From Phycisphaerae bacterium (lineage in GTDB: Bacteria; Planctomycetota; Phycisphaerae; SM23-33), in assembly GCA_016929245.1 (NCBI GenBank), contig JAFGJE010000233.1:1883-65882 (forward strand): a stretch of 64,000 bases of DNA, in the 5' to 3' direction. This document shows, one piece after another, positions 874 through 61,341 of this stretch. The translations under genes were made by a program, and so were the position numbers. The notes under the pieces are model-generated. The model made no database searches, was not told the DNA's origin, and worked only from the letters and a program-made list of their open reading frames with translations. Positions within the stretch are counted from its first letter, which is position 1, and every line of letters starts with the position of its first letter.

Positions 874-1938
874 TTATTTCGACATATGTATGTCAGCGGA
901 AACGGGTTTATCTGGTTCGAACATGTTGATCAGGGCGAACGGCACGGTTAATTGCGTGGGAAACGGCAGGGGAGACTCGAAAATCTGGATCAATTGTCGC
1001 ACGGCTGCCATGGCAAGGCGTTCTCCCGACGTGGTAATCAGGGGGTAATTTCCAAGATGATACTTATCGATCAACTCGCGGGTGCTTCCGACGACGATGT
1101 TTCGGCTGTCGATGGGATTCCCGCGCATTTCTATGGCGTGGATGAATGATCTCGCTGTTCGCGCTTCGGGAACCAGGTAAGCGGTCGGAGGATTCGCCTG
1201 GGCCAGGAACGCGTCGGCCGCCGGTTCCCCGCCCGCGAAATCCTTTCCCGCCACGTGGATCCAGTCGGCCTCTGCCGGTAGGGAATGGTTCGCCAGCCCC
1301 AGACGATATCCCTCCAGCCAGAGCGAATAATACAGACCCTCCGGCAGGGTTTCGCAAACGAAACCGATACGCCGATGTCCCTGCTTCACGAGGTATTCGA
1401 CCGCGATTTTCCCCATGGTCAGATAGTCATAATCGACAATGTTTCCCTTGATCTTCGATACATTCGACTCTTTGTGCTGGTAATGCCCGATGGCGACATA
1501 GGGAATCGAACAACTTTCCAGCCAATCGAGAAGATTTTCTTTAACGTATCCCGTCACGATCAGACCGTCCACCCCCTTGGCAAAAGAGGAAACCTTTTCG
1601 CAGGCGTCGTCGGCCTTGTCGGGCTCGAGGGAAGCCATTTCGAATCGCATTCCCTGGGACGAGATATTCGCCGCCATGGTGTTGACGATCGTGGGATACA
1701 CCTCATGATGGTGAATGTTTCCGATCAGAAAAAAACCGATGCGCTTCAGTCCGCAGCGGACACCCGGTAAAGGCCGGACCCGCATCCGCTCCCGGCGGGG
1801 CGTATACCCAAGCTCCCGGCTGATTCGAATGACATCTTTTTTGGTCTTCTTGCTGATATTCGGATGATCCGAAAGGGCCATCGATACCGTGGACACGGAA
1901 CATTTACCTGCTTTGGCGATGTCTTTGAGTGTGATCAT
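874..1938 (-). CDS. LacI-family transcriptional regulator
   Basis: N-terminal HTH MITLKDIAKAGKCSVSTVSMALSDHPNIS followed by a periplasmic-binding-protein-like sugar-binding core. Divergent from the PEP-CTERM gene across an AT-rich promoter region. Confidence 0.85.
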   Translation of the reverse strand: MITLKDIAKAGKCSVSTVSMALSDHPNISKKTKKDVIRISRELGYTPRRERMRVRPLPGVRCGLKRIGFFLIGNIHHHEVYPTIVNTMAANISSQGMRFEMASLEPDKADDACEKVSSFAKGVDGLIVTGYVKENLLDWLESCSIPYVAIGHYQHKESNVSKIKGNIVDYDYLTMGKIAVEYLVKQGHRRIGFVCETLPEGLYYSLWLEGYRLGLANHSLPAEADWIHVAGKDFAGGEPAADAFLAQANPPTAYLVPEARTARSFIHAIEMRGNPIDSRNIVVGSTRELIDKYHLGNYPLITTSGERLAMAAVRQLIQIFESPLPFPTQLTVPFALINMFEPDKPVSADIHMSK

Positions 1939-2025
1939 GTACCTGCTTTATACAAACCAAGGACGGCGAATTCAAATCATTAACTACTTCAGTATACTCC
2001 GACTTTTACCATGATGCAAGAACGA

Positions 2026-2041
2026 ATTTGAAATTTCAAAT
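2026..2041. promoter_or_regulatory. 16-bp perfect palindrome ATTTGAAATTTCAAAT in the divergent lacI / PEP-CTERM intergenic region, candidate operator
   Basis: Perfect dyad of TG-N6-CA type read directly from the sequence. It lies about 90 bp upstream of the lacI start and about 190 bp upstream of the PEP-CTERM gene. Confidence 0.25.
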
Positions 2042-2232
2042 ATTTTTATATCCTCTTTATATAAATATATTTGCGTCTATATTTGTTCTTTTATATCAGT
2101 ATTATTTGAATAAAATAATTGAATATATATTTGATTTTTACTTGATTTTCAATCAACGTGGGGTATGATATGGGAGTTGCGGAAGGTCAAAGAAGGACGT
2201 TTACCCAATTCATTCGAGAAAGGAGAAAGACG

Positions 2233-3024
2233 ATGGAAATGGCAAAGAAACTGGCGATGATGGTTCTAACCATTGCGGCCATGAGCGCCTGTGCGAACGC
2301 GACAATGTTGATCAATGAGGATTTCAGTGGTACTGCCGGTGATGCCTTCGATACCACCGGGTGGACGACATGGGCTTTGGGCAATCGTTGGTATACCGAC
2401 AGTTCTCTCGCCGAAAACACCGAGAAGATACTTAGTCTCAAGTATTCCACGAATGGCACGATGGGTCACGCGGGCAGTACGGCAAATCCCGCGGCCATGG
2501 GAATCGTGAATGCCCAGGCTTTCAGCGGAACCGATACAGTCATTACATTTCGGAGCACCCATGATGTCTATGAGTGCGGAGCCATTATTTTCAACTACCA
2601 GGACAAGGACAATTACTACATCTTTGGCGCAAGAAGCATGGATACAGGGATTAACTCCGTGAGTGCCAGCGGGGCCTTATTCCGAAAAGTGGTCGACGGC
2701 ACACCCACCACGATTGCGACGTTTGAAAACCCCCAATGGGACGCCTATGGAGAATTTAAGGGAGTGAATCCGGACGGCGTGACGGTGACGGTCGCGGTGG
2801 ACGGTTCGGATTTCGAATTCAGTATTTCTCGAGCCGACAAGACCACGTTGACCTATACCGCCAGTGATGCGACGTTCGCCAGCGGCGGACAAGCGGGTTT
2901 TATTCTGCAGTCCAAAGTCAACCACAACGTCGCCGATTTATTTACAGTGGTTCCCGAACCGGCGACGATGCTGCTGCTGGCCGGTGGGGCCATGGGTGTG
3001 CTGATTCACAGGAAAGGTCGGTAA
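2233..3024 (+). CDS. PEP-CTERM sorting-domain protein with N-terminal beta-sandwich (lectin/glucanase-like) domain
   Basis: Signal peptide MEMAKKLAMMVLTIAAMSACANA. C-terminus VPEPATMLLLAGGAMGVLIHRKGR is a PEP motif followed by a TM helix and basic tail. AAGGAG Shine-Dalgarno sits 8 nt before the ATG at 2233. The track ORF starts further upstream, at 2158. Confidence 0.8.
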   Translation: MEMAKKLAMMVLTIAAMSACANATMLINEDFSGTAGDAFDTTGWTTWALGNRWYTDSSLAENTEKILSLKYSTNGTMGHAGSTANPAAMGIVNAQAFSGTDTVITFRSTHDVYECGAIIFNYQDKDNYYIFGARSMDTGINSVSASGALFRKVVDGTPTTIATFENPQWDAYGEFKGVNPDGVTVTVAVDGSDFEFSISRADKTTLTYTASDATFASGGQAGFILQSKVNHNVADLFTVVPEPATMLLLAGGAMGVLIHRKGR

Positions 3025-3104
3025 GCGTATAATGTTACTGTAGAGCAACATATCGGACGGCGGCGATTGTGTGTGCGACAACATTTTCTGGTATATCCCT
3101 GAAT

Positions 3105-3227
3105 TGTCATCCTGAGCGTGGCGAGTCTTCGAGCGAAGTCGAAGGATCTTACGCCTGCAAACGTGTGAGATTCTTCGACTTCGTCGCAGGTTCGCCACGC
3201 TCACAAGCGACTCCGCTCAGAATGACA
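3105..3227. repeat. large palindromic repeat element, copy 1 (TGTCATCCTGAGCG ... CGCTCAGAATGACA termini with nested inner hairpin)
   Basis: 14-bp terminal inverted repeats with one mismatch. Inner stem CGAAGTCGAAGGATC / GAGATTCTTCGACTTCG. A related copy lies at 61246-61341. The track ORF 3069-3272 (translation ...CHPERGESS...) is the spurious reading of this element. Confidence 0.6.
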
Positions 3228-3336
3228 ACTATGGGGGCGCCGGAAAAAATTGTCAAACACCGGCGATTTTAATCTGCCGCTGTCCAATGGATATGCGCCT
3301 TGCCAAAAGGACCGGAGCTGACAGAAGAACAAACGA

Positions 3337-4101
3337 ATGAATTCATCACGAAACAGGGCATTTACGTTGATAGAACTTCTCGTTGTGATCGCGATTCTTT
3401 CGCTGTTGGTCTCCATTTTACTGCCGTCTCTGACCTCCGCCAAAGAGTTAGCCCGTCAGGTGCAGTGCATGACGCAACTCCACACGATCGGCATGGCGGA
3501 GAATTATTATATCCAGGACCATAACGAACAGATTATTTACACCCGCGGCGAATATTTCACCCCGTACTGTTCCTTTTGGGCTTCGTTTATCTGGGAACAA
3601 ATGCACGGCAATCTCACCCAGATTCATCAGAACGACATTCGCCTGGATTCCGTGGAATTTCTGCGCTGCCCGACTACACCTTCGGACGGTTATCAAGGCT
3701 GGGCCGATTCTCCGCGAGGCGGGCAGCCGCGCCTGCCCTATACTACGTCTGGTATTTCGTATGAAGGCATTACGTATGCACGAAATTCATTTCATTATCC
3801 TAATGTTCTTTATGCGGATTCCAGGAACCCTGACCCTCAGACGATGGTTTCGATTAACGACTTCCAGGCTCCGGGGGATACCCCGGATGTTACAAATGGG
3901 CTCCATTTTCATGCCACCACGTGGACTCGTAATTGGGATATAGATGAACCTTCGAAACGCGTCGGCGGTCAACGATGCGTCGATTATCGGCATGTGGGAT
4001 TGGATTCGTTGAATCTCCTTCTCTGGGACGGCCATGTGGACAACGTGAAGGAATCCGTTTGGGATAATTACCACATGACGATCAAAGACGATGAAGATTA
4101 A
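3337..4101 (+). CDS. prepilin-type N-terminal cleavage/methylation domain protein (DUF1559 / H-X9-DG family pseudopilin-like)
   Basis: N-terminus MNSSRNRAFTLIELLVVIAILSLLVSILLPSL is a class III signal peptide plus pilin-like helix. C-terminal ...LLLWDGHVDNV is an H-X9-DG-like motif. Confidence 0.85.
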   Translation: MNSSRNRAFTLIELLVVIAILSLLVSILLPSLTSAKELARQVQCMTQLHTIGMAENYYIQDHNEQIIYTRGEYFTPYCSFWASFIWEQMHGNLTQIHQNDIRLDSVEFLRCPTTPSDGYQGWADSPRGGQPRLPYTTSGISYEGITYARNSFHYPNVLYADSRNPDPQTMVSINDFQAPGDTPDVTNGLHFHATTWTRNWDIDEPSKRVGGQRCVDYRHVGLDSLNLLLWDGHVDNVKESVWDNYHMTIKDDED

Positions 4102-4173
4102 TAATTTCCCGAAATCCATTTTCCGACTCATCGCTCAGAAATATCAACTCGTACGGAAAGACGAAATACGATT

Positions 4174-6657
4174 ATGAAGCGTACATTCTATATTCTTGTC
4201 CTTGTATTGATGGCTTCTTCGCGGGTATGGGCGTTGGAATTCGTGGCCGACGCACAGCCGCGGACGGTGATCGTGATTCCAAACGAGCCGTTGGAAGTGG
4301 TTCAAGCGGCGGCGGAAGAGTTGCAATATCACATTCAAAAGGCGACCGGCGCGACACTGCCCATCGCCAAAGAATCCCAAAAGCCTGAAGCAAAAGGGTA
4401 CGTCTACCTGGGCTCAACCCAGGCGGCGAAGCAGGCGGCCTTGCTGAAAAGATTCAAGCCGAATGCATTTGTCATCAAAACCGCCGGCGATACCCTCTAT
4501 ATCGCCGGCGATGATTCCGCGGGAAAAGTGTTTGGTCTTTTAAGCGCCAACACTACCCGCGTTGGTACGCTCCTGGGAGTGTATGAATTTCTGGAAACAA
4601 AACTCGGGGTTCGCTGGCTGTGGCCGGGTGAAGTCGGAGAAGTAATTCCTCACAGAGAAACGATTCGCGTGGAGGACTTTATGCAAACCGGCGGAACCAG
4701 ACTCATAAACAGCCGTTTTAGAGACGGAAGGAACATGAATCTGAAAGCCGGCTGGACAAACGACGCCAATCGACTCAAGTTTCTGAACGAGCAGAGCCGT
4801 TGGCTGCGCCGCCATCGTTTCGCCATCGTCGAGGACGACACCAGTGGACACGCCTATACTCGTTATTGGAAAAGGTTCGGCATAACACATCCGGAATATT
4901 TCAATCAGCTTCCGGACGGTACAAGAAGGCCGGAGGGGTATAGCGGCAATATTTCCATGTGTGTTTCTCAGCCGAAGCTCTGGAAGCAAATCGTGCGGCA
5001 GTGGCGGCAGAGTCGCCAAAAAGGTTCGGCGCGGCGCTCTTTGCTTTGTATTGCGGAAAATGATACGTCGGGCAAATGCACCTGCCCGAATTGTATGGCC
5101 TGGGATGCGCCAGATCCCGATCTGAAATTCCCTTATCACCAGAGGCTGGAGCGGGCCCGTAAGGCATTCATGGAAAAAGACCCCGATTGGGTGAAATATC
5201 TTGGTTCCTTGTCCGACCGATACGCGAAGTTTTATTTGGAGGTCCAAAAGGAGGCAAGGAAATATGATCCGAAGATCAAGGTTCTCGCCTATGCCTACGG
5301 GAATTATCGAAAACCGCCCATCAAAACCAAACTAAATGACGGTATTATCATCAAGAATGTTCCAGGAATAAGTTTTTCCGCGCCGGCAGAAACCTGGACG
5401 AAGTTTCAGGACAATTGGAAGGACTGGCGTCAAACCGGATGCATTCAGGTTCTTCGGCCGAATTACACGCTTACCGGCCATAATATGCCTATAAACTACG
5501 CGAAAACATTCGGGAAACACTTCGCATTCGTCGCCCGAGAAGGGCTGTATGGAACGGACTTTGATTCGTTGACCGGCCAATATGCCGCTCAGGGATTATC
5601 CCTGTATACCATCGCTCGGATGAACCATCGCCCGGATTTGCCCGTCGAGGCGATCCTGAAGGAGTATTATGACGGCTTCGGGCCCGCGGCAGATGCGATT
5701 AAAGCCTATTGGGATTTCTGGCAGGATCTACCCCGGGAATTAACCTCGACAAAGAGAAATGCGATCCGCGCCAGAAAGAAGATTCCCCATTCGCAATGGC
5801 GTCAAACGTACTGGCGGAAATTTGTGCTTTTCACGCCGGAGCTTTTTACGCCCGAACGATTCGAGCTGGGCTATGCGTTATTGGAAAAAGCCCGGACCGC
5901 CGCGGGCGAGGATAAACGGGTTCTGGCGAAAATCGACTTTCTGAAAAAAGGTCTCCGTCACGCGGAATTGACCGTGCAGGCGCAGAAGGCGGTGGATCAA
6001 TATCAATATTTCAAAACCGGCGATATTCACTCGATCGTAGCGGCCGTGAAACAACTGGACGCCTACCGCCGCCGGATCGAACACCATGGCATTTCCAACA
6101 TGGGGCTTCTTCGTGCCTCGGAAGCATTGTTCTGGCCTTTCGCGGACATCGAAGTCGCCGAGAAATCCGCCAAGCCGTTGCCCGAAGTCTGGAAGTTCAA
6201 ATGGGACCCGGAGGATCAGGGTTTACAAGACGGCTGGGCGGCCAGGGAATATGACGACGAGGTGTGGGATTCCATACGTACGGATGCACCCTGGGAGTTA
6301 CAGCCCATCGGGGAGGCCTGGAAGCGCGCCCACGGACAGGACTATGATGGTTACGCCTGGTACAGAACTTCGTTCACAATCGAGCCTGGTGAGTCTTCGG
6401 ATCGCAAGCGAAAGGTCTTTCTTATTTTCGGAGCGGTGGACGAAGCCTGCGTGATTTGGGTAAACGGACAGAAGGTATTAGACAGGCCGTTTCCCTATCA
6501 GGACAACCGGAACTCCTGGCGGGAGCCGTTTACGGTGGAGATCACCCCATATGTTGTCGCCGGCGAAAACAGCCTAGCCGTTCGCGTGGAAGACCGCGGC
6601 GGGCAGGGTGGAATTTTCAAGCCGGTCTGGTTGTCCGTGATGAATGAAGGCAAATAA
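4174..6657 (+). CDS. secreted 827-aa glycoside-hydrolase-like protein with C-terminal galactose-binding-like jelly-roll domain (GH2 sugar-binding-domain type)
   Basis: Signal peptide MKRTFYILVLVLMASSRVWA. Cys cluster CTCPNCMAWD. C-terminal YDGYAWYRTSF...VFLIFGAVDEACVIWVNGQKV resembles the jelly-roll sugar-binding domain of family-2 beta-galactosidases. The N-terminal catalytic family is not assignable by eye. Confidence 0.65.
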   Translation: MKRTFYILVLVLMASSRVWALEFVADAQPRTVIVIPNEPLEVVQAAAEELQYHIQKATGATLPIAKESQKPEAKGYVYLGSTQAAKQAALLKRFKPNAFVIKTAGDTLYIAGDDSAGKVFGLLSANTTRVGTLLGVYEFLETKLGVRWLWPGEVGEVIPHRETIRVEDFMQTGGTRLINSRFRDGRNMNLKAGWTNDANRLKFLNEQSRWLRRHRFAIVEDDTSGHAYTRYWKRFGITHPEYFNQLPDGTRRPEGYSGNISMCVSQPKLWKQIVRQWRQSRQKGSARRSLLCIAENDTSGKCTCPNCMAWDAPDPDLKFPYHQRLERARKAFMEKDPDWVKYLGSLSDRYAKFYLEVQKEARKYDPKIKVLAYAYGNYRKPPIKTKLNDGIIIKNVPGISFSAPAETWTKFQDNWKDWRQTGCIQVLRPNYTLTGHNMPINYAKTFGKHFAFVAREGLYGTDFDSLTGQYAAQGLSLYTIARMNHRPDLPVEAILKEYYDGFGPAADAIKAYWDFWQDLPRELTSTKRNAIRARKKIPHSQWRQTYWRKFVLFTPELFTPERFELGYALLEKARTAAGEDKRVLAKIDFLKKGLRHAELTVQAQKAVDQYQYFKTGDIHSIVAAVKQLDAYRRRIEHHGISNMGLLRASEALFWPFADIEVAEKSAKPLPEVWKFKWDPEDQGLQDGWAAREYDDEVWDSIRTDAPWELQPIGEAWKRAHGQDYDGYAWYRTSFTIEPGESSDRKRKVFLIFGAVDEACVIWVNGQKVLDRPFPYQDNRNSWREPFTVEITPYVVAGENSLAVRVEDRGGQGGIFKPVWLSVMNEGK

Positions 6658-6738
6658 TCCCACAATCGGCCAAATGCTATGATAGATACAATAGACAGCA
6701 GACGCAATCATACGCCGCGCGGGAAGCGATGTATTACT

Positions 6739-7446
6739 ATGCGAGAGAAGACGACAAGAAAGGATGTTCGGCAGATTGAACTGCCTGAAGTGAAGCAAGG
6801 TTTCACCCTCATAGAATTATTGGTCGTGATCGCGATCCTTTCGCTGCTGGTCAGCATTCTTGTACCGAGTCTCACCAAGGCCAGGGAACTCGCCAAAATG
6901 GTCGTCTGTGAGACGCAGTTGCGGAATATCGGATACGCCCTGGGTTTTTATGCGGACGACAATGGGGAATATTTACCCTCCGGCCGCGTCAGGAGAAACA
7001 AGGGGTACTTCTGGTGGTGCCTGTTGTATCCGTATCTGGATTCCAGGGATTACGGGGATAACCATTGGCCCGACCTGGAGGTGTTTCTCTGTCCCACGCA
7101 GGAAGCGCATTACACGCCGGGATCGATTTGGTCTCACTGCGATTACGCCGACAGTTACTGGTTCGGGTATGATCGGGCGCCCAATTCGGCGCCGGCGCCG
7201 GAGTACGATCCCGCGCAGGCGAAGATTTCTCAGGTTCTCCATCCCGCCGATACCGCCTATGCCGTCGACTCGAAAAGCGGGGTCCTTGGCGGCCCGTATG
7301 TATACGGCGCCACGGATCCGCGCGCGGACTTTCGTCATCTCGACGGCGTGACGGCGAACCTGCTTTTCGTCGACGGGCACGTGGAAAATCTTGACTATAG
7401 CGAGGCGGCCGACGTCGACTTCGGCGAAGACAATATTCAACGATAG
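6739..7446 (+). CDS. prepilin-type N-terminal cleavage/methylation domain protein (DUF1559 / H-X9-DG family), second copy
   Basis: ...KQGFTLIELLVVIAILSLLVSILVPSLTKARE with C-terminal ...LLFVDGHVENLDY. Start chosen at the internal Met (MREKTT...). The track ORF begins at 6679. Confidence 0.8.
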   Translation: MREKTTRKDVRQIELPEVKQGFTLIELLVVIAILSLLVSILVPSLTKARELAKMVVCETQLRNIGYALGFYADDNGEYLPSGRVRRNKGYFWWCLLYPYLDSRDYGDNHWPDLEVFLCPTQEAHYTPGSIWSHCDYADSYWFGYDRAPNSAPAPEYDPAQAKISQVLHPADTAYAVDSKSGVLGGPYVYGATDPRADFRHLDGVTANLLFVDGHVENLDYSEAADVDFGEDNIQR

Positions 7447-7510
7447 GCCTTTTCAAAGGTCGGCACGGCCTTTTTGAGGTTCGCCACTTGCTCCAATATG
7501 AAAAGAAAGG

Positions 7511-8785
7511 ATGATTCCTGTGAGAGTACCTAAACAGCATTTCTCCTTCGTATGTCTGATGTGGATGTTTGCGGCGTCTTTGGGGTTCGCCGATCTGCCG
7601 GCTGTGAAAAACGTTGAAGCAAAAGACGGCCGGGTTCTGGTCAACGGTAAACCGTTTTTGCCCATCGGCGTCTACCACGCCGCCCATCATCACAAAGCCG
7701 TTCCCGAAGTGGCTGCCAAGGGATTCAACACCGTGCAAGTATTCGGCGGGACGCCGGAAGCATTAAAAGAAGATCTGGATAATGCGTATGCAAACGGCAT
7801 GTATGGTTTTGCGGCATTACACGGTCTTTGTGAAGATTTAACCCGGCTGGAAAAAATCGTGTTATTGAATCGCGACCATCCCGGTTTGCTGGTCTGGTAT
7901 CTGCATGACGAACCGAATTCGCGTGTCGGAGGTCCTGAATATAAAGACAAACCCAAACACGAACATCCGTATAAAAGGCCTCCGGAGAAACTCAAACCCG
8001 CGTATGACCTGATTAAAAAACTGGACCCCAAACATCCGATCTGGGTCAATCTTGCCCATGGATGGGTAAAGGATTACGTCGCCTATGCACCCATCTGCGA
8101 TATCCTTTCCGGTGACGTGTATCCCGTTCCCAAGTACGGCCTGGAATTTGTGGCAACCTATGTGAATCTTGCAAAGAAGGGTGGTGCGGGCAAAAAAGTC
8201 CTATGGTCGCCGCTCCAGATGTCCCCCGTCCGTCCCGACATGAAAGGCGACGATCGTCCCCCGACGATGAAGGAAGTTCATTGTGCGACGTATATGGCGA
8301 TCGCACACGGCACTACCGGCCTTATGTATTATGCGTTCAATGAAGAAGGATGGGAAGTGGAAGGCTGGCCTTGGTCGAACTGGCGCACCAGCACATCCGC
8401 CCCGGCCTACTGGGCGCAGTGGTCGGACCTGACAGCCGAGTTGAATTCCCTCGCACCGTTGCTCCTTTCGCCGACGATGATAACCAGAATCGGAATACGC
8501 GATTTCAAGAGTACCGACGAAAAGGACGCCGCTAAAAGATCCGACCTGCACCTGGCGTTGAAAAAAGGCAAGGAAAGCTACCTGTTGATCGCCGTGAACG
8601 GCAGCGACAAGACCATCACAGCCTCGATTACACTACCGGAAGAGGTGAGAAAAGCCGACACAACCGCGGCTGTACGTTTTGAGAACCGATTACAGCCGTT
8701 GAAAAACAACATCATTTCGGACCAGTTCGGTCCGCACGAAGTTCACCTGTATGAGATTCCGTTCGCAAGGCCTGTTTCCAGATAG
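7511..8785 (+). CDS. secreted putative glycoside hydrolase (TIM-barrel, cellulase-like superfamily)
   Basis: Signal peptide. Motifs FNTVQVFGG and LLVWYLHDEPN resemble the NEP catalytic-acid region of GH5/GH42-type (beta/alpha)8 hydrolases. Follows the second pseudopilin-like gene. Confidence 0.55.
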   Translation: MIPVRVPKQHFSFVCLMWMFAASLGFADLPAVKNVEAKDGRVLVNGKPFLPIGVYHAAHHHKAVPEVAAKGFNTVQVFGGTPEALKEDLDNAYANGMYGFAALHGLCEDLTRLEKIVLLNRDHPGLLVWYLHDEPNSRVGGPEYKDKPKHEHPYKRPPEKLKPAYDLIKKLDPKHPIWVNLAHGWVKDYVAYAPICDILSGDVYPVPKYGLEFVATYVNLAKKGGAGKKVLWSPLQMSPVRPDMKGDDRPPTMKEVHCATYMAIAHGTTGLMYYAFNEEGWEVEGWPWSNWRTSTSAPAYWAQWSDLTAELNSLAPLLLSPTMITRIGIRDFKSTDEKDAAKRSDLHLALKKGKESYLLIAVNGSDKTITASITLPEEVRKADTTAAVRFENRLQPLKNNIISDQFGPHEVHLYEIPFARPVSR

Positions 8786-35739: not shown

Positions 35740-35967
35740 GAAAGAACGTTCCTCAGACGTGCAAGGACGAAAAACAGGTTAGTTGACAATATTGGAATTG
35801 CCGGTTTCCACGCAAGAGGCTATAACATGGCTTATTCCGGTTTTCCCATTGTCAGTTCATATTTTAAAACCACATCCTCTGGGTGTTGATTCTTGAACTC
35901 GACGATGAGATATACGGTTGTTTGTATATTGATTCAGAATTAACTTCCTCAAAATTTTTTGAAAATA

Positions 35968-36687
35968 ATGTCGAAAATTCACCCGAAAATAAAAGCGCAA
36001 ATTGAAAAAGTCACCGGAAAGCGTTCTTTGGCTGTGATTCATCACATTGTGCAAAACGGTCGAATTACAACCGAAGAACTGAAGGAAATCTACGGATACA
36101 ATCACCCTCCACGCGCGGCGCGAGATGTCCGGGAACAAGGTGTGCCGTTGGATACTATCAAGGTTCGTGGTTCTGACGGCCGTCTTATTGCGGCGTATGT
36201 TTTCGGAGATCCTTCAAAAATAGAGCAACATAAACTCGGTGGTCGAAAAATATTTACAAAAGCATTCAAGAAACTACTTATCGAACAACAAGGATCGATT
36301 TGTGCCGTTACCGGTGAACCATTTCACCCGAGATACCTCTCGATTGATCATCGAATTCCTTACGAAGTGGCAGGAGATCAGATTTTCGGGGAAGACAATC
36401 CTTCGGCGTTTATGCTGATTTCCGCGGCGGCGCAGCGTCAAAAAAGTTGGTCCTGTGAGCAGTGCGAAAATTGGACCGAGGTAAAGAACCCGAAAATCTG
36501 TAAACGTTGTTACTGGGCTTTTCCTGAGAATTATAAGCATATTGCAATGGAGGAAAGGCGAAGGATCGAGATTGTCTGGATAGGATCGGATGAGGTGGCG
36601 GAATACGAACAATTACAAAAAACGTGCCGAAAAAACGGCGTGTCGCTGATTTTATTCATAAAACAGACAATGAAAAAAATTCTTTAA
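35968..36687 (+). CDS. HNH-family endonuclease, putative Type II restriction endonuclease
   Basis: Low-GC gene. N-terminal winged-helix-like segment, then an HNH core ...HPRYLSIDHRIPYEVAGD...N...C.QCENW...NPKICKRCYW... (His/Asn plus Cys4). Tail-to-tail 4-bp overlap with the Dam-class methyltransferase gene. Confidence 0.6.
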   Translation: MSKIHPKIKAQIEKVTGKRSLAVIHHIVQNGRITTEELKEIYGYNHPPRAARDVREQGVPLDTIKVRGSDGRLIAAYVFGDPSKIEQHKLGGRKIFTKAFKKLLIEQQGSICAVTGEPFHPRYLSIDHRIPYEVAGDQIFGEDNPSAFMLISAAAQRQKSWSCEQCENWTEVKNPKICKRCYWAFPENYKHIAMEERRRIEIVWIGSDEVAEYEQLQKTCRKNGVSLILFIKQTMKKIL

Positions 36688-37598
36688 TCAAATAATGTGC
36701 AAGTCCTTTGTCGCGTTTTTCGAAGAGGCAGCGGAATGGTTTTCAGTTTTTCGATCGCTGCGGGGGAAAGATACAAAGACTCATATGTATTATGACTCCG
36801 ACCAAGCAATGTGGCCTGCGTGGATCGACCAACAAGAATCTCACAATGGAATAAGTTGAGTGATTCAGGTAGTTTTTCACCGTAAGTCGTGTCTCCTGTA
36901 CGCCCATCATAACTTACGACGAAGGGAATTTGTTTCGCATTTAAAGCGTTTAATTCCTCAACGAATTCATCAAAAACAATACCCTTGACATATCGATTGT
37001 CTCGATTTCGACATACTCCCTGATATGGGGGATCCATATAGACAAAATCCGTCTTTTTTGTTTTACGAAGAACGGCTTTGAAATCACTCGTTGAAACCGT
37101 CGTTCTGTCACACAATACCTTGTGAACCAGGATGATATTATTCCTCATCGTGTCGGGTTTCATTCCAAGCCGTCGGTGATCCGGACTATTGTTAAATTCC
37201 CCGTTCCTGTTGTACCGAATCGCCGCTTTCACACAACGGGCCAGGAGAAAAAGGAAATCCGCCGGTTGCTGTGTGCGATTGAATTTATTTCGAACTAAAT
37301 TATAATATTCTTTTTCCCGTCCAAGTTGTTCCGTCCAGATTCGTTCATAATCATCCGCGAGAGCAAGAGGGGAAGTAAGAATACAATTCCATAACGAAAT
37401 AAGGGGTTGGTGCGCATCATTCAACCAAAAGGTTTCCGCCACTCCATTCCAGGCGGCCGCAACGGATATCGCAGCGGAACCCGCGAAGGGTTCCAGCAAA
37501 CGGCGCGTGCCTTTGGGAATACAGGAGAGAATAACGGAGGCCAGCTTTCGCTTGCTTCCTTGATACGGAAACGGTTGTGGAACGTTTCGTATTCGCAA
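36684..37598 (-). CDS. N6-adenine DNA methyltransferase, D12 (Dam) class
   Basis: ...PFPYQGSKRKLA...LLEPFAGSAAIS... is motif I. ...DFVYMDPPYQG... is motif IV (DPPY). Low GC relative to the surroundings. Confidence 0.9.
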   Translation of the reverse strand: MRIRNVPQPFPYQGSKRKLASVILSCIPKGTRRLLEPFAGSAAISVAAAWNGVAETFWLNDAHQPLISLWNCILTSPLALADDYERIWTEQLGREKEYYNLVRNKFNRTQQPADFLFLLARCVKAAIRYNRNGEFNNSPDHRRLGMKPDTMRNNIILVHKVLCDRTTVSTSDFKAVLRKTKKTDFVYMDPPYQGVCRNRDNRYVKGIVFDEFVEELNALNAKQIPFVVSYDGRTGDTTYGEKLPESLNLFHCEILVGRSTQATLLGRSHNTYESLYLSPAAIEKLKTIPLPLRKTRQRTCTLFD

Positions 37599-37728
37599 AA
37601 ACTTGTACTTCCTCTCCGCGTTATATTGTTGGAACTGTTTTTATCGCGTAATTATCATTTCGTGGAATCATCGGCTTTTGTCCGATTGTAACGTTTTTTG
37701 TGGAAAAATACACCCGTGATCAACTACG

Positions 37729-38604
37729 TCAACGGTGCTCGAACCATTCCCGCCAGTCGTCGGGAAGATTGTACTGGGCGATGTGCGTCGCCTGGGACGC
37801 CGCCGGGGCGTAAGTTTCCAGGTTCAACTCCGCCAAGCCGATCGCGAGATTCGCGGCGATGCGTCCCAGCGCCCCGGCCGGCCCGCCGCGACGGTCCGCG
37901 TCGGCAGGATCGTCCAGGTCCTTGAACAACCCCCCTCCCGTGAAAGGCTGTCGCCGGTTGCCCATCTCCGCGTACGCGGTGACGTAGCAGACGGCCGCGT
38001 ATCCCATCTGAAGCTCCCGCGCGAGAAACGGTTCGGGCAGGAACGTCCGCGTGACGATCTCCGCGCCGATCATCGAGAGCATGCGCACCTCCGCGGGGGT
38101 TTCCAGGCGCGGGCCTTCCCGCACGGCCGCCACCCCGGAGGTGTGATACACCAGCTTCATGTCCTGAAGCGTTCCCGCCAGCCGGCGGCGGAGTTCCTCG
38201 CAGAAGACGGGAAACTGTCGCAATCCCCCCAGCGGGGAATCCTCGAAGAACGTGCTCGCTCGCTGGTGCGTCTGGTCGATCACGTCGCTGAGGATGACCA
38301 GGTCGCCCTCGGTGATGTTGTGCGTAATCGCGGCGCCCGGTCCCCAGCCGAGGATGCAATGCACTCCGAGATCCTTCAGCGCGTAGAGATTCGCGCGGGC
38401 GTTGACGCGATGCGGCGCCGTTTTGTCCATGCCCGACGCCCGGCGCGCCAGCAGGTAATACGACGCTTCGTCGCCGCGGATATGAAAGACATCCCCGCTC
38501 TCGCCGTAGGGCGTCGCGCGACGACCCAGCGCCTGACCCTGGATCAGGCCGGCGGACCACTGGCGGTACATTTCGTCGTCGGCAATGCAGGCTAAGACAG
38601 CCAT
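37729..38604 (-). CDS. purine nucleoside phosphorylase family 2 protein, S-methyl-5'-thioadenosine (or thioinosine) phosphorylase-like
   Basis: MAVLACIADDEMY... then ...APHRVNARANLYALKDLGVHCILGWGPGAAI... matches the MTAP motif (H..P..VNYRANIWALKELGV). The track ORF has a 30-aa spurious N-terminal extension. Confidence 0.8.
   Translation of the reverse strand: MAVLACIADDEMYRQWSAGLIQGQALGRRATPYGESGDVFHIRGDEASYYLLARRASGMDKTAPHRVNARANLYALKDLGVHCILGWGPGAAITHNITEGDLVILSDVIDQTHQRASTFFEDSPLGGLRQFPVFCEELRRRLAGTLQDMKLVYHTSGVAAVREGPRLETPAEVRMLSMIGAEIVTRTFLPEPFLARELQMGYAAVCYVTAYAEMGNRRQPFTGGGLFKDLDDPADADRRGGPAGALGRIAANLAIGLAELNLETYAPAASQATHIAQYNLPDDWREWFEHR
37736..37790. repeat. 55-bp perfect direct repeat, right copy (native 3' end of the MTAP gene)
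   Basis: Identical to 35685-35739. Forms the last ~18 codons of the minus-strand MTAP-family gene. Confidence 0.85.
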
Positions 38605-38869
38605 CCAAACGTCCTCGCGCAAAAAAGGGATCGAACAACAATACAAGGGGATTATGAAACGCCGACCACCGAAATGCAAGGCGTCGTTATACAAGAAAGA
38701 TATCGCGGAATAGAATCCTCCGCGTGTTGGACGTCATGGCGCGAGGAAGTCGTCCCTGAAAAAATTTCCATACCCTATATTCATGGGCTGAAAATTTTGT
38801 TCGGGCGGGGTATAGTTTGCAGGGAATTCACGGAGGAACCCACAAAACCTTGCAAAACAGGACGGAACC

Positions 38870-39240
38870 ATGAAGCCCAAACGCCAGCCCCGCGACACGT
38901 TCGAACTCTTCCGATCCCGCTTCGATCCAATCCTCAATCCGGACCACGAATTGATCCGGTTGGCCCAGCAGATCGACGGACCCCGCTTCGAGACGGCCTT
39001 CGCGGATTATTATTCGCCGGATATGGGTGCGCCGGGCAAGGACCGCAAACGATACGAATTCGGCCAGAAGATATCGGTCGCCACGACGAATCGAAGCCAT
39101 TGGTTCCGTCGCCGCGGAGTTGTGCGAGGGGAATCCCTACGACGGCCATACGTTGGCCTCGACATTGCAAGCCGTCGAAACCAACACCGGCGTCGCGGTA
39201 CAAGAGGCACGACTCATTCGAGAAGAATATGGTTTATAAA
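38870..39240 (+). pseudogene. internally deleted/frameshifted IS5/IS1182-family transposase remnant
   Basis: One frame reads ...FELFRSRFDPILNPDHELIRLAQQIDGPRFETAFADYYSPDMGAPGKD..., the InsH-type N-terminal domain. Another frame reads ...EGNPYDGHTLASTLQAVETNTG..., a DDE-domain fragment. There is no intact ORF. Confidence 0.45.
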
Positions 39241-39435
39241 ATTGTTCAAGGCGTCCGCGTTGATGAATCCGCCCTTCGATGATTTTTGTATTTTCGTTTC
39301 TTTGACTTTCCGTTATGGCATGGTATCTTAACTCCCATGACAGGCCGTCGACGAAAAGAAACGCCGTTTCCGGCGTAGCCATTGACATTTTCAACGAATT
39401 TTATTTTGTGATAACTGTATAGAATAAATAAACTT

Positions 39436-61245: not shown

Positions 61246-61341
61246 CTGTCATCCTGAGCGGAGCGAAGCGGAGTCGAAAGACCTTACGCCCACCTACCCG
61301 TGAGGTCCTTCGACTCCGCTGCGCTCCGCTCAGGATGACAG
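61246..61341. repeat. large palindromic repeat element, copy 2 (CTGTCATCCTGAGCGGAGCGAAGCGGAGTCGAA ... TTCGACTCCGCTGCGCTCCGCTCAGGATGACAG)
   Basis: 33-bp arms with one mismatch around a ~30-nt centre. Same TGTCATCCTGAGCG termini as the element at 3105-3227. Sits in the divergent dnaB / DUF721 intergenic region. Confidence 0.6.

Follow-up and report, generated by a model that had tools for sequence, protein, structure and literature searches.

Analysis of a stretch of 64,000 nucleotides from a Phycisphaerae bacterium (assembly GCA_016929245.1, contig JAFGJE010000233.1, forward strand positions 1,883 to 65,882; hereafter the window, in whose own numbering positions are given) revealed a block at 874-8785 in which genes for prepilin-like proteins alternate with genes for secreted, enzyme-like proteins. 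Four co-directional genes on the + strand encode prepilin A, a pilin- or pseudopilin-like protein (3337-4101), a secreted DUF4838 enzyme of 827 amino acids (4174-6657), prepilin B, with a predicted pilin/pseudopilin fold (6739-7446, in an open reading frame (ORF) that opens at 6679), and a secreted protein of 424 amino acids with a (beta/alpha)8 barrel and a beta-sandwich, belonging to a small GH42/GH35-like family (7511-8785). Upstream of these lie a gene for a LacI-family regulator on the - strand (874-1938) and, divergent from it on the + strand, a gene for a secreted PEP-CTERM protein with no assigned function (2158-3024; probable start at 2236, MEMAKKL...). When about 170 related loci were compared, the association of a prepilin gene with an enzyme gene proved to be conserved, directional and co-inherited in several bacteria of the Planctomycetes-Verrucomicrobia-Chlamydiae (PVC) group, and to reach well beyond the window.

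The six ORFs have the coordinates given in a first-pass annotation made from the sequence alone. Within 3337-8785 the intergenic gaps are 72, 81, and 64 bp, and a convergent oligopeptide ABC transporter operon starts 5 bases beyond 8785. The four genes probably form one operon and would be co-transcribed, since the same-strand gaps are short, no terminator-like site was found on the + strand between 3000 and 8800, and the best sigma-70-like promoter match of the region (3005-3033, + strand; TTCACA-17-TATAAT, 11/12 consensus) lies just upstream. The prepilin-then-enzyme order does occur twice, as the first-pass annotation had it, but the two units, called tandem there, are not a tandem duplication, as their enzymes belong to different families; recent tandem duplication is ruled out by the 32% identity of the two prepilins, the absence of a DNA-level repeat and the unrelated enzymes. 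A six-frame scan of the 64 kb found the motif G/A-F-T-L-I-E-L-L at two places only, in prepilins A and B.

Regarding the two small proteins, the prepilin-type N-terminal methylation domain previously read in both was confirmed by PF07963 (32.7 bits for prepilin A and 30.6 bits for prepilin B, cut-off 21.2) and TIGR02532 (28.8 and 33.0 bits, cut-off 16.3). Prepilin A has an eight-residue leader, MNSSRNRA, with Ala at position -1, followed by the core FTLIELLVVIAIL with Glu at +5 and a variable globular domain; prepilin B has Gly at -1, the core FTLIELLVVIAIL with Glu at +5 and a conserved Cys pair. The best NCBIfam full-family match of both was GspG (TIGR01710; 35.8 and 44.6 bits), covering approximately 55 N-terminal residues only, and both proteins are far under the 88.85-bit cut-off for membership of the GspG equivalog. 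The predicted structure of prepilin B is a pilin/pseudopilin fold, with a long alpha-1 helix on an antiparallel beta-sheet, that aligns to EpsG and PulG, while the globular domains of the window's prepilins differ from that of GspG in being about twice its size. The core FTLIELLVV with Glu at +5 is invariant over thousands of paralogs and the Cys pair is invariant in the prepilin family alignment, whereas the globular domain is hypervariable, with a mean column identity of 21%. This globular part is small and had no fold match outside pilins in the structure search, and no carbohydrate-binding module was recognized in either prepilin with Pfam or NCBIfam.

Both prepilins had been labeled as DUF1559 and H-X9-DG proteins. 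The second label did not hold: direct reading of the C-terminal motif gives RH-X11-DGH in both, with a spacer of 11 residues, and a search with TIGR04294 (H-X9-DG) gave no match to prepilin A or B at E <= 0.01. Among 120 homologs the spacer between His and Asp-Gly is 9 in 59, 10 in 12, and 11 in 11. Support for the first label is marginal, prepilin B being barely above the cut-off of PF07596 (24.1 bits against 23.3, over profile positions 2-87 only) and prepilin A below it (17.5 bits). Since TIGR04294 missed both proteins, PF07596 is marginal or sub-threshold and the spacer has 11 residues, prepilins A and B are, as judged by these profiles, divergent relatives of the DUF1559/H-X9-DG family and not strict members of it. 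Prepilin B has more than 7000 homologs, many of which have a PF07596 match and are named 'H-X9-DG protein' or the like by their sources. In Planctomycetes such paralogs, combining N_methyl and SBP_bac_10 (DUF1559) domains, are present in 91 copies in Tuwongella immobilis and in 68 copies in Planctopirus limnophila, where two are essential (PMC10632474). The window's prepilins share with this family the prepilin N-terminus, the variable domain and the C-terminal His...Asp-Gly motif; they differ in being shorter (235-254 amino acids), in scoring at or below the PF07596 cut-off, in being missed by TIGR04294 and in having a spacer of 11, not 9.

The residue at position -1, which precedes the Phe of the core, varies between lineages. 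It is Gly in 111 of 120 close homologs of prepilin B; in the prepilin-like genes of Lentisphaerota (loci L006-L078) it is Gly in 3 of 27, with R, S, C, I and K being common. Canonical cleavage by a prepilin peptidase therefore appears doubtful for the whole Lentisphaerota branch, despite the retained Glu at +5, because Gly at -1 is so rare there.

Both larger proteins had been proposed to be secreted and hydrolase-like. Hydrolase-type folds, which had been set beforehand as a test, were found in both, and both have predicted Sec signal peptides; direct reading of the two enzymes and the PEP-CTERM protein gives Sec-type signal peptides ending in ...SSRVWA↓LE, ...SLGFA↓DL and ...ACANA↓TM. The public annotation places a GTG start of the DUF4838 protein 23 codons later, leaving out 4174-4242, giving 804 instead of 827 amino acids and losing the signal peptide, and a GTG start of the TIM-barrel protein three codons later (leaving out 7511-7519; 421 instead of 424 amino acids). 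The longer ORFs seem more plausible for both enzymes, as homologs retain the N-terminal signal peptide.

In the 827-residue protein, PF16126 (DUF4838) matches residues 152-514 with 83.5 bits against a cut-off of 26.6; the C-terminus is a jelly roll of the GH2_N type (PF02837, 55.5 bits) and the N-terminus is weakly GH67N-like (PF03648). More than 1100 homologs were found, and the residues E295-N-D297 and several Tyr are invariant in the family alignment. The catalytic residues of the GH185 enzyme Sp_0475 are D309 and Y436. DUF4838 is the catalytic domain of the glycoside hydrolase (GH) families GH163 and GH185 of CAZy, both distantly related to GH20, with BT1035 of GH163 being an endo-beta-N-acetylglucosaminidase acting on complex N-glycans and Sp_0475 of GH185 a 6-sulfo-GlcNAcase; sequences with a DUF4838 domain are very diverse (PMC10570127). 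The window's protein resembles BT1035 in having the same catalytic domain together with a C-terminal putative carbohydrate-binding domain, although the latter is of the GH2_N type and not F5/8. On sequence grounds it is probably a hexosaminidase-type glycosidase of the GH163/GH185 type.

The 424-residue protein belongs to a small family with 42 homologs. Its AlphaFold2 (AF2) model (mean confidence, pLDDT, 88.9) consists of a (beta/alpha)8 barrel and a C-terminal beta-sandwich, for which Foldseek gave a probability of 1.0 to structures of GH35, GH13, GH140, GH5, and GH164; PF02449 (GH42) scored 21.9 bits against a cut-off of 21, over profile positions 219-339 of 376 only, and the NCBIfam search gave no match. 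With beta-strands assigned by DSSP on the AF2 model, E134 in the motif D-E-P-N at the end of beta-4, the position of the acid/base Glu, is invariant in the family, whereas the position of the clan GH-A nucleophile on beta-7 is occupied by Gln (Q236) in 35 of 37 members. Because Gln replaces the nucleophile Glu while D-E-P-N is kept, the protein, although of a hydrolase fold, appears to have non-canonical chemistry, possibly a substrate-assisted mechanism, and the family is perhaps an undescribed GH family. The window's copy deviates from the family at several near-invariant residues (N104H, H189Y, R257H, and D201G). Relatives of the 424-residue protein (loci L081, L084, L085, and L086) recur beside genes encoding DUF4838, GHL10, BNR/sialidase-like, SASA (sialate O-acetylesterase) and DUF6785 proteins, even without a prepilin gene, and this recurrence beside the same gene families points to a set of enzymes kept together for one class of glycan, which may be sialylated or rich in N-acetylhexosamine (HexNAc).

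Investigation of 80 genomic loci encoding DUF4838 homologs with 33-74% identity, in which prepilin-like ORFs were detected by tblastn and iterated hidden Markov model searches, and in which a pair was counted when a prepilin-like gene lay directly upstream on the same strand (gaps of 7-318 bp), revealed an upstream prepilin in 17 of 27 loci of Lentisphaerota, in 3 of 13 of Planctomycetota (L001 and two Phycisphaeraceae), in 1 of 24 of Armatimonadota (L055) and in 0 of 11 of other phyla. The Lentisphaerota flanks contain 11 other prepilin genes in 467 kb, or about 2-3% of genes, and the binomial probability of the pairing in this phylum is p = 3e-11 even at a background of 10%. The paired DUF4838 enzymes fall into at least 13 clusters at <50% identity and thus do not represent one recent lineage counted repeatedly. 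The closest relative, L001, keeps the first pair of the window, with an enzyme 74% and a prepilin 55% identical to those of the window, and the Lentisphaerae metagenome-assembled genome (MAG) at L006 has the same four-gene layout, its fourth gene being homologous to that of the 424-residue protein (28% identity over 365 residues, E = 1e-23). Further prepilin genes at DUF4838 loci precede genes encoding GH39, GH28, GH2, GH109-like, GH123-like, and DUF4838 proteins. The idea that pairing comes with the enzyme families themselves was rejected, as most DUF4838 genes of Armatimonadota and Pirellulaceae have no prepilin neighbor, and likewise five of five relatives of the 424-residue protein.

Prepilins and enzymes also appear to have been inherited together. 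The nearest relative of a DUF4838-paired prepilin is itself DUF4838-paired in 19 of 21 cases (expected approximately 51%, p = 1.7e-4), including a link across phyla between the prepilins of L006 (Lentisphaerae) and L080 (Phycisphaeraceae), which are 47% identical. In a Mantel test the distances between enzymes and those between prepilin globular domains were correlated with r = 0.74 (p = 2e-4).

An independent sample of metagenome loci, selected by similarity to prepilin B (80 loci with 94 prepilin ORFs), showed the same direction. Glycan-active enzymes or sulfatases make up 9 of 25 annotated co-directional downstream neighbors vs. 1 of 45 upstream neighbors (Fisher's exact p = 2.4e-4; 0.02 under a conservative recount). 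The nine are a DUF4838 protein, two sulfatases, an FGE-sulfatase domain protein, two beta-helix proteins, a GH65C-like protein, an AXE1-like esterase and a GFO oxidoreductase with a TAT signal; the remaining downstream neighbors include two to three small CarboxypepD_reg lipoproteins and five housekeeping genes. Of the 45 upstream neighbors one is a GFO oxidoreductase, and GH catalytic families, sulfatases and beta-helix proteins are absent; these neighbors are rich in regulators (LacI/GntR with a periplasmic-binding-protein (PBP) domain, AraC, histidine kinase) and also comprise three ConA-like Laminin_G_3 proteins and transporters. Six annotated contexts of prepilin B homologs hold ten prepilin genes, five of which are directly followed by a gene for a large enzyme (GH123, DUF4838 twice, Laminin_G_3 with GH123_N, and an unknown protein of 841 amino acids; from L169, L172, and L173). 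In L171 and L172, the genes just ahead of prepilin-enzyme modules encode LacI/GntR-PBP regulators. The clearest repeated three-part example is L172 (a 20.7-kb contig of JGI 3300062303), with three consecutive modules of a LacI/GntR-PBP regulator, an N_methyl and DUF1559 prepilin and a large enzyme (DUF4838, Laminin_G_3 with GH123_N, and the 841-residue protein), which mirrors the order LacI, prepilin, DUF4838 of the window. The one-to-one pairing of pseudopilins with carbohydrate-active enzymes (CAZymes) suggested by the first-pass annotation thus proved to be repeated, specific and above chance by comparative genomics, but it is not one-to-one across the family.

Pseudopilin systems tied to a single secreted glycoside hydrolase have a precedent in the pul secreton of Klebsiella, which is co-regulated with the pullulanase PulA, although the window differs from it in having a single pilin-like gene per enzyme and no adjacent gsp/pul machinery that could be found. 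In the type VI secretion system, VgrG/PAAR paralogs are each encoded beside a cargo effector, and the prepilin-enzyme pairs may be seen as analogous, with scattered paralogs of a fiber subunit each just upstream of a co-inherited secreted cargo gene, although the machinery and protein families are unrelated. To our knowledge, loading of cargo by a pseudopilin has been demonstrated for no type II secretion system (T2SS). The modules further resemble the polysaccharide utilization loci (PULs) of Bacteroidota, in that a regulator, a non-catalytic envelope protein and secreted CAZymes occur together and repeatedly (three times in L172); unlike these, they contain no SusC/SusD or TonB-dependent transporter, and the accessory has a pilin fold and occurs once per enzyme. 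We regard the locus as a PUL-like module built around a pilin-fold accessory of a known, uncharacterized family. No description of pairing with CAZymes or sulfatases, of co-inheritance or of a regulator-prepilin-enzyme module was found in the literature searched, the coverage of which was not exhaustive; in that literature the specific pairing was preceded only by a general remark on signal-peptide neighbors of these genes in Tuwongella (PMC8567305).

The prepilin-enzyme pairs are likely to be functional modules. The explanation that we favor for the block at 874-8785, though tentatively, is that it is a small glycan-utilization locus in which pilin-like proteins couple their cognate enzymes to a pseudopilus of the T2SS or type IV pilus (T4P) type; that the mechanism concerned is export or surface presentation is plausible, although less likely than not. 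Both enzymes would be exported by Sec and probably act together on a HexNAc- and Gal-containing polymer resembling N-glycans or mucin, a substrate suggested by the functions of the enzyme families and by the recurrent BNR/sialidase-like, SASA esterase and GHL10 neighbors. Each pilin-like protein would be the cognate envelope accessory of the enzyme encoded next: the invariant FTLIELL helix would insert it into the inner membrane, a prepilin peptidase encoded elsewhere would process it if the Phe follows Gly or Ala, as it does in both prepilins of the window, and the processed protein would join a T2SS/T4P-type pseudopilus, with the fast-evolving globular domain binding the partner enzyme so that the latter is carried across the outer membrane or kept at the cell surface. 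We infer these steps, from the physical contact of the two partners to processing, assembly and eventual secretion or presentation. Coupling of enzyme to pseudopilus is favored because the N-terminus is invariant and of the assembly type, because the gene order is that of adaptor before cargo and because there is one accessory per enzyme. Were the pilin-like protein a cargo adaptor, this would also be relevant to substrate recognition by type II secretion systems, a problem of long standing.

Several observations weigh against this explanation. The 64-kb window, in which a few ORFs stayed unannotated, yielded neither a prepilin peptidase nor an ATPase, secretin or platform protein of a T2SS or T4P, and its other genes are housekeeping genes (FtsY, PurH, DAHP synthase, malic enzyme, MurC, TsaD, DnaB, histidine kinases, porin). 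With Ala at -1 in prepilin A and mostly residues other than Gly in Lentisphaerota, many members may escape cleavage and polymerization. The pairing is partial and lineage-restricted. Of the prepilin genes sampled, approximately 35-60% are partnered by an enzyme gene, and others are followed by genes for small CarboxypepD_reg lipoproteins or regulators, by housekeeping genes or by prophage blocks. In Armatimonadota, Omnitrophota and further groups, enzymes of these same families have no prepilin partner; a prepilin neighbor was absent from all five sampled loci of relatives of the 424-residue protein. Regarding the statistics, the sampled loci are phylogenetically non-independent, which inflates counts, the DUF4838 loci are CAZyme-rich by construction, and the Spearman coefficient in the Mantel test is 0.14, so that only closer pairs show clear co-inheritance, the signal being saturated at greater depth.

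Alternatively, the prepilin may bind the polysaccharide substrate of the enzyme or its products, on a fiber or in the envelope, and not the enzyme itself, thereby capturing or sensing glycan. Precedents are the pilin-family cellulose-binding proteins of Ruminococcus albus, and SusD/SusE-type proteins of Bacteroidota PULs provide a functional parallel. The grouping of the hypervariable globular domains by partner enzyme family, and hence by likely substrate, would fit such a role, as would the position of modules behind sugar-sensing LacI/GntR-PBP regulators and the range of partners, which besides GHs includes sulfatases and non-enzymes and is consistent with a substrate-centered logic; furthermore, systems of the SusC/D type are absent in these organisms (Kiritimatiella: PMC5148204). 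However, prepilins A and B lack a recognized carbohydrate-binding module, their small globular part matches pilin folds only, and the strict pilin-first order, the gaps of 7-100 bp and the pairing with a single enzyme resemble adaptor-cargo pairs more than a binding protein shared by a multi-enzyme locus. We regard glycan binding as a serious alternative, although a rather unlikely one.

The same N-terminus could also serve as an uncleaved signal anchor, the protein then being an inner-membrane tether, chaperone or maturation factor in the periplasm, with no pilus or T2SS involved and with the enzymes processing imported oligosaccharides in the enlarged periplasm of PVC bacteria. The non-Gly residue at -1 in 24 of 27 Lentisphaerota is incompatible with a canonical requirement for Gly, which prepilin A likewise lacks in having Ala; a disulfide in a periplasmic or extracytoplasmic location is suggested by the invariant Cys pair, the window holds no secretion machinery that could be found, and the proteins of Tuwongella fractionate with the detergent-soluble membrane (PMC8567305). 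The invariant FTLIELLVV core with Glu at +5 is nevertheless hard to explain unless a pilin assembly or processing machinery reads it, the close homologs of prepilin B overwhelmingly have Gly at -1 (111 of 120), and the overall fold is that of assembling pilins, which makes an uncleaved anchor improbable. Finally, the absence of any direct coupling, with numerous DUF1559-like genes accumulating in mobile CAZyme islands and adjacency reflecting shared regulation or joint duplication or transfer, would be in line with the distinct composition of the block (GC content at third codon positions (GC3) of 0.55-0.66 vs. 0.70-0.83 in most other window genes), the many prepilin genes with non-enzyme neighbors, the enzyme families without prepilin partners in other phyla and the inflation of counts by relatedness of the sampled loci, but is very improbable. 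In 17 of 27 Lentisphaerota loci the prepilin gene has one precise position, on the strand of the enzyme gene and just ahead of it with a short gap, compared with a gene background of about 2-3%; the pairing spans at least 13 deeply diverged enzyme lineages and crosses phyla; enzymes lie downstream and regulators upstream; and prepilins cluster by partner family.

In many PVC genomes no paralogous families are larger than those of the DUF1559/H-X9-DG prepilin-like proteins, which number tens to hundreds and include some essential copies; no function was given in the papers found. PVC phyla play a major part in breaking down sulfated and complex glycans, but are without the SusC/D systems that account for glycan use in Bacteroidota. 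Conserved, directional and co-inherited pairs, often behind a LacI-type regulator, make the function of this orphan family testable on defined pairs, and it is because of these properties that the question becomes concrete. Extending the coupling of enzymes to a pseudopilus beyond the window, PVC bacteria (Lentisphaerota, Phycisphaerae, other Planctomycetota, and probably their relatives) might use minimal modules of a sugar-sensing regulator, a cargo-specific pseudopilin and a secreted enzyme, with the hundreds of DUF1559/H-X9-DG paralogs per genome serving as a library of cognate adaptors that load enzymes onto a shared T2SS/T4P-like fiber for export or display. This generalization is speculative and unlikely to hold as a whole; if true, it would provide a new principle of type II substrate selection and an equivalent of PULs for phyla without SusC/D.

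Regarding the genes upstream of the four-gene unit, the presence of a LacI-family regulator divergent from a PEP-CTERM gene, as in the first-pass annotation, was borne out, with helix-turn-helix and periplasmic-binding-protein-like sugar-sensing (effector) domains above their Pfam cut-offs (PF00356 with 45.2 bits; PF13377 and PF00532 also exceed theirs). The LacI protein would control the four-gene unit in response to a sugar; a search for a LacI operator in the gap 1939-2157 gave AT-rich palindromes only, none of which could be assigned as an operator. For the PEP-CTERM protein, which had been described as lectin- or glucanase-like, the sorting motif was found (PF07589, 26.7 bits; TIGR02595, 21 bits), but no lectin or glucanase domain (ConA-like, e.g., Laminin_G_3, or DUF1080) and no other Pfam domain was detected at E <= 1, and a search of PDB sequences gave no informative match. 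Over its full length it weakly resembles, below threshold, the PepA flocculation PEP-CTERM family (24.8 bits, cut-off 80).

The low GC3 of the block, the 47% identity of the L006 and L080 prepilins and the recurrence of the four-gene layout in a Lentisphaerae MAG together hint at lateral transfer of modules among these phyla or at mis-binned MAG contigs. DUF1559-type prepilin genes also adjoin prophage-like blocks in two of the six annotated contexts (L168:1918-3520 and L171:10001-10696), with an SU10 major capsid gene in one and terminase, portal and capsid genes in the other, which may be a coincidence or reflect a preferred integration neighborhood.

Between the PEP-CTERM gene and prepilin A lies a long, near-perfect palindromic hairpin element (3104-3228, strand unassigned), identified by RNA folding with a minimum free energy of -80.7 kcal/mol (z = -9.5) and bearing the terminal motif GTCATCCTGAGCG...CGCTCAGRATGAC. 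A weaker sigma-70-like promoter site is present at 3222-3250, 3' of the hairpin and 87 nt ahead of prepilin A. An Rfam scan of the hairpin matched no family, and a miRNA-like identity was rejected, the Rfam match concerned being sub-threshold and judged an artifact. Near the opposite end of the window, at 61248-61339, is a further copy, shorter than the first, in which GTCATCCTGAGCG forms an exact inverted pair (61248/61339). The element looks like a repeat of the REP (repetitive extragenic palindromic) or MITE (miniature inverted-repeat transposable element) type, and the upstream copy could insulate or terminate the PEP-CTERM gene or belong to the 5' leader of the operon. Elsewhere in the window, a second island of low GC3 (0.42-0.48) at 35959-39282 contains a gene for a D12-class N6-adenine DNA methyltransferase (36684-37598) together with unannotated ORFs, and may be a restriction-modification or mobile cassette.

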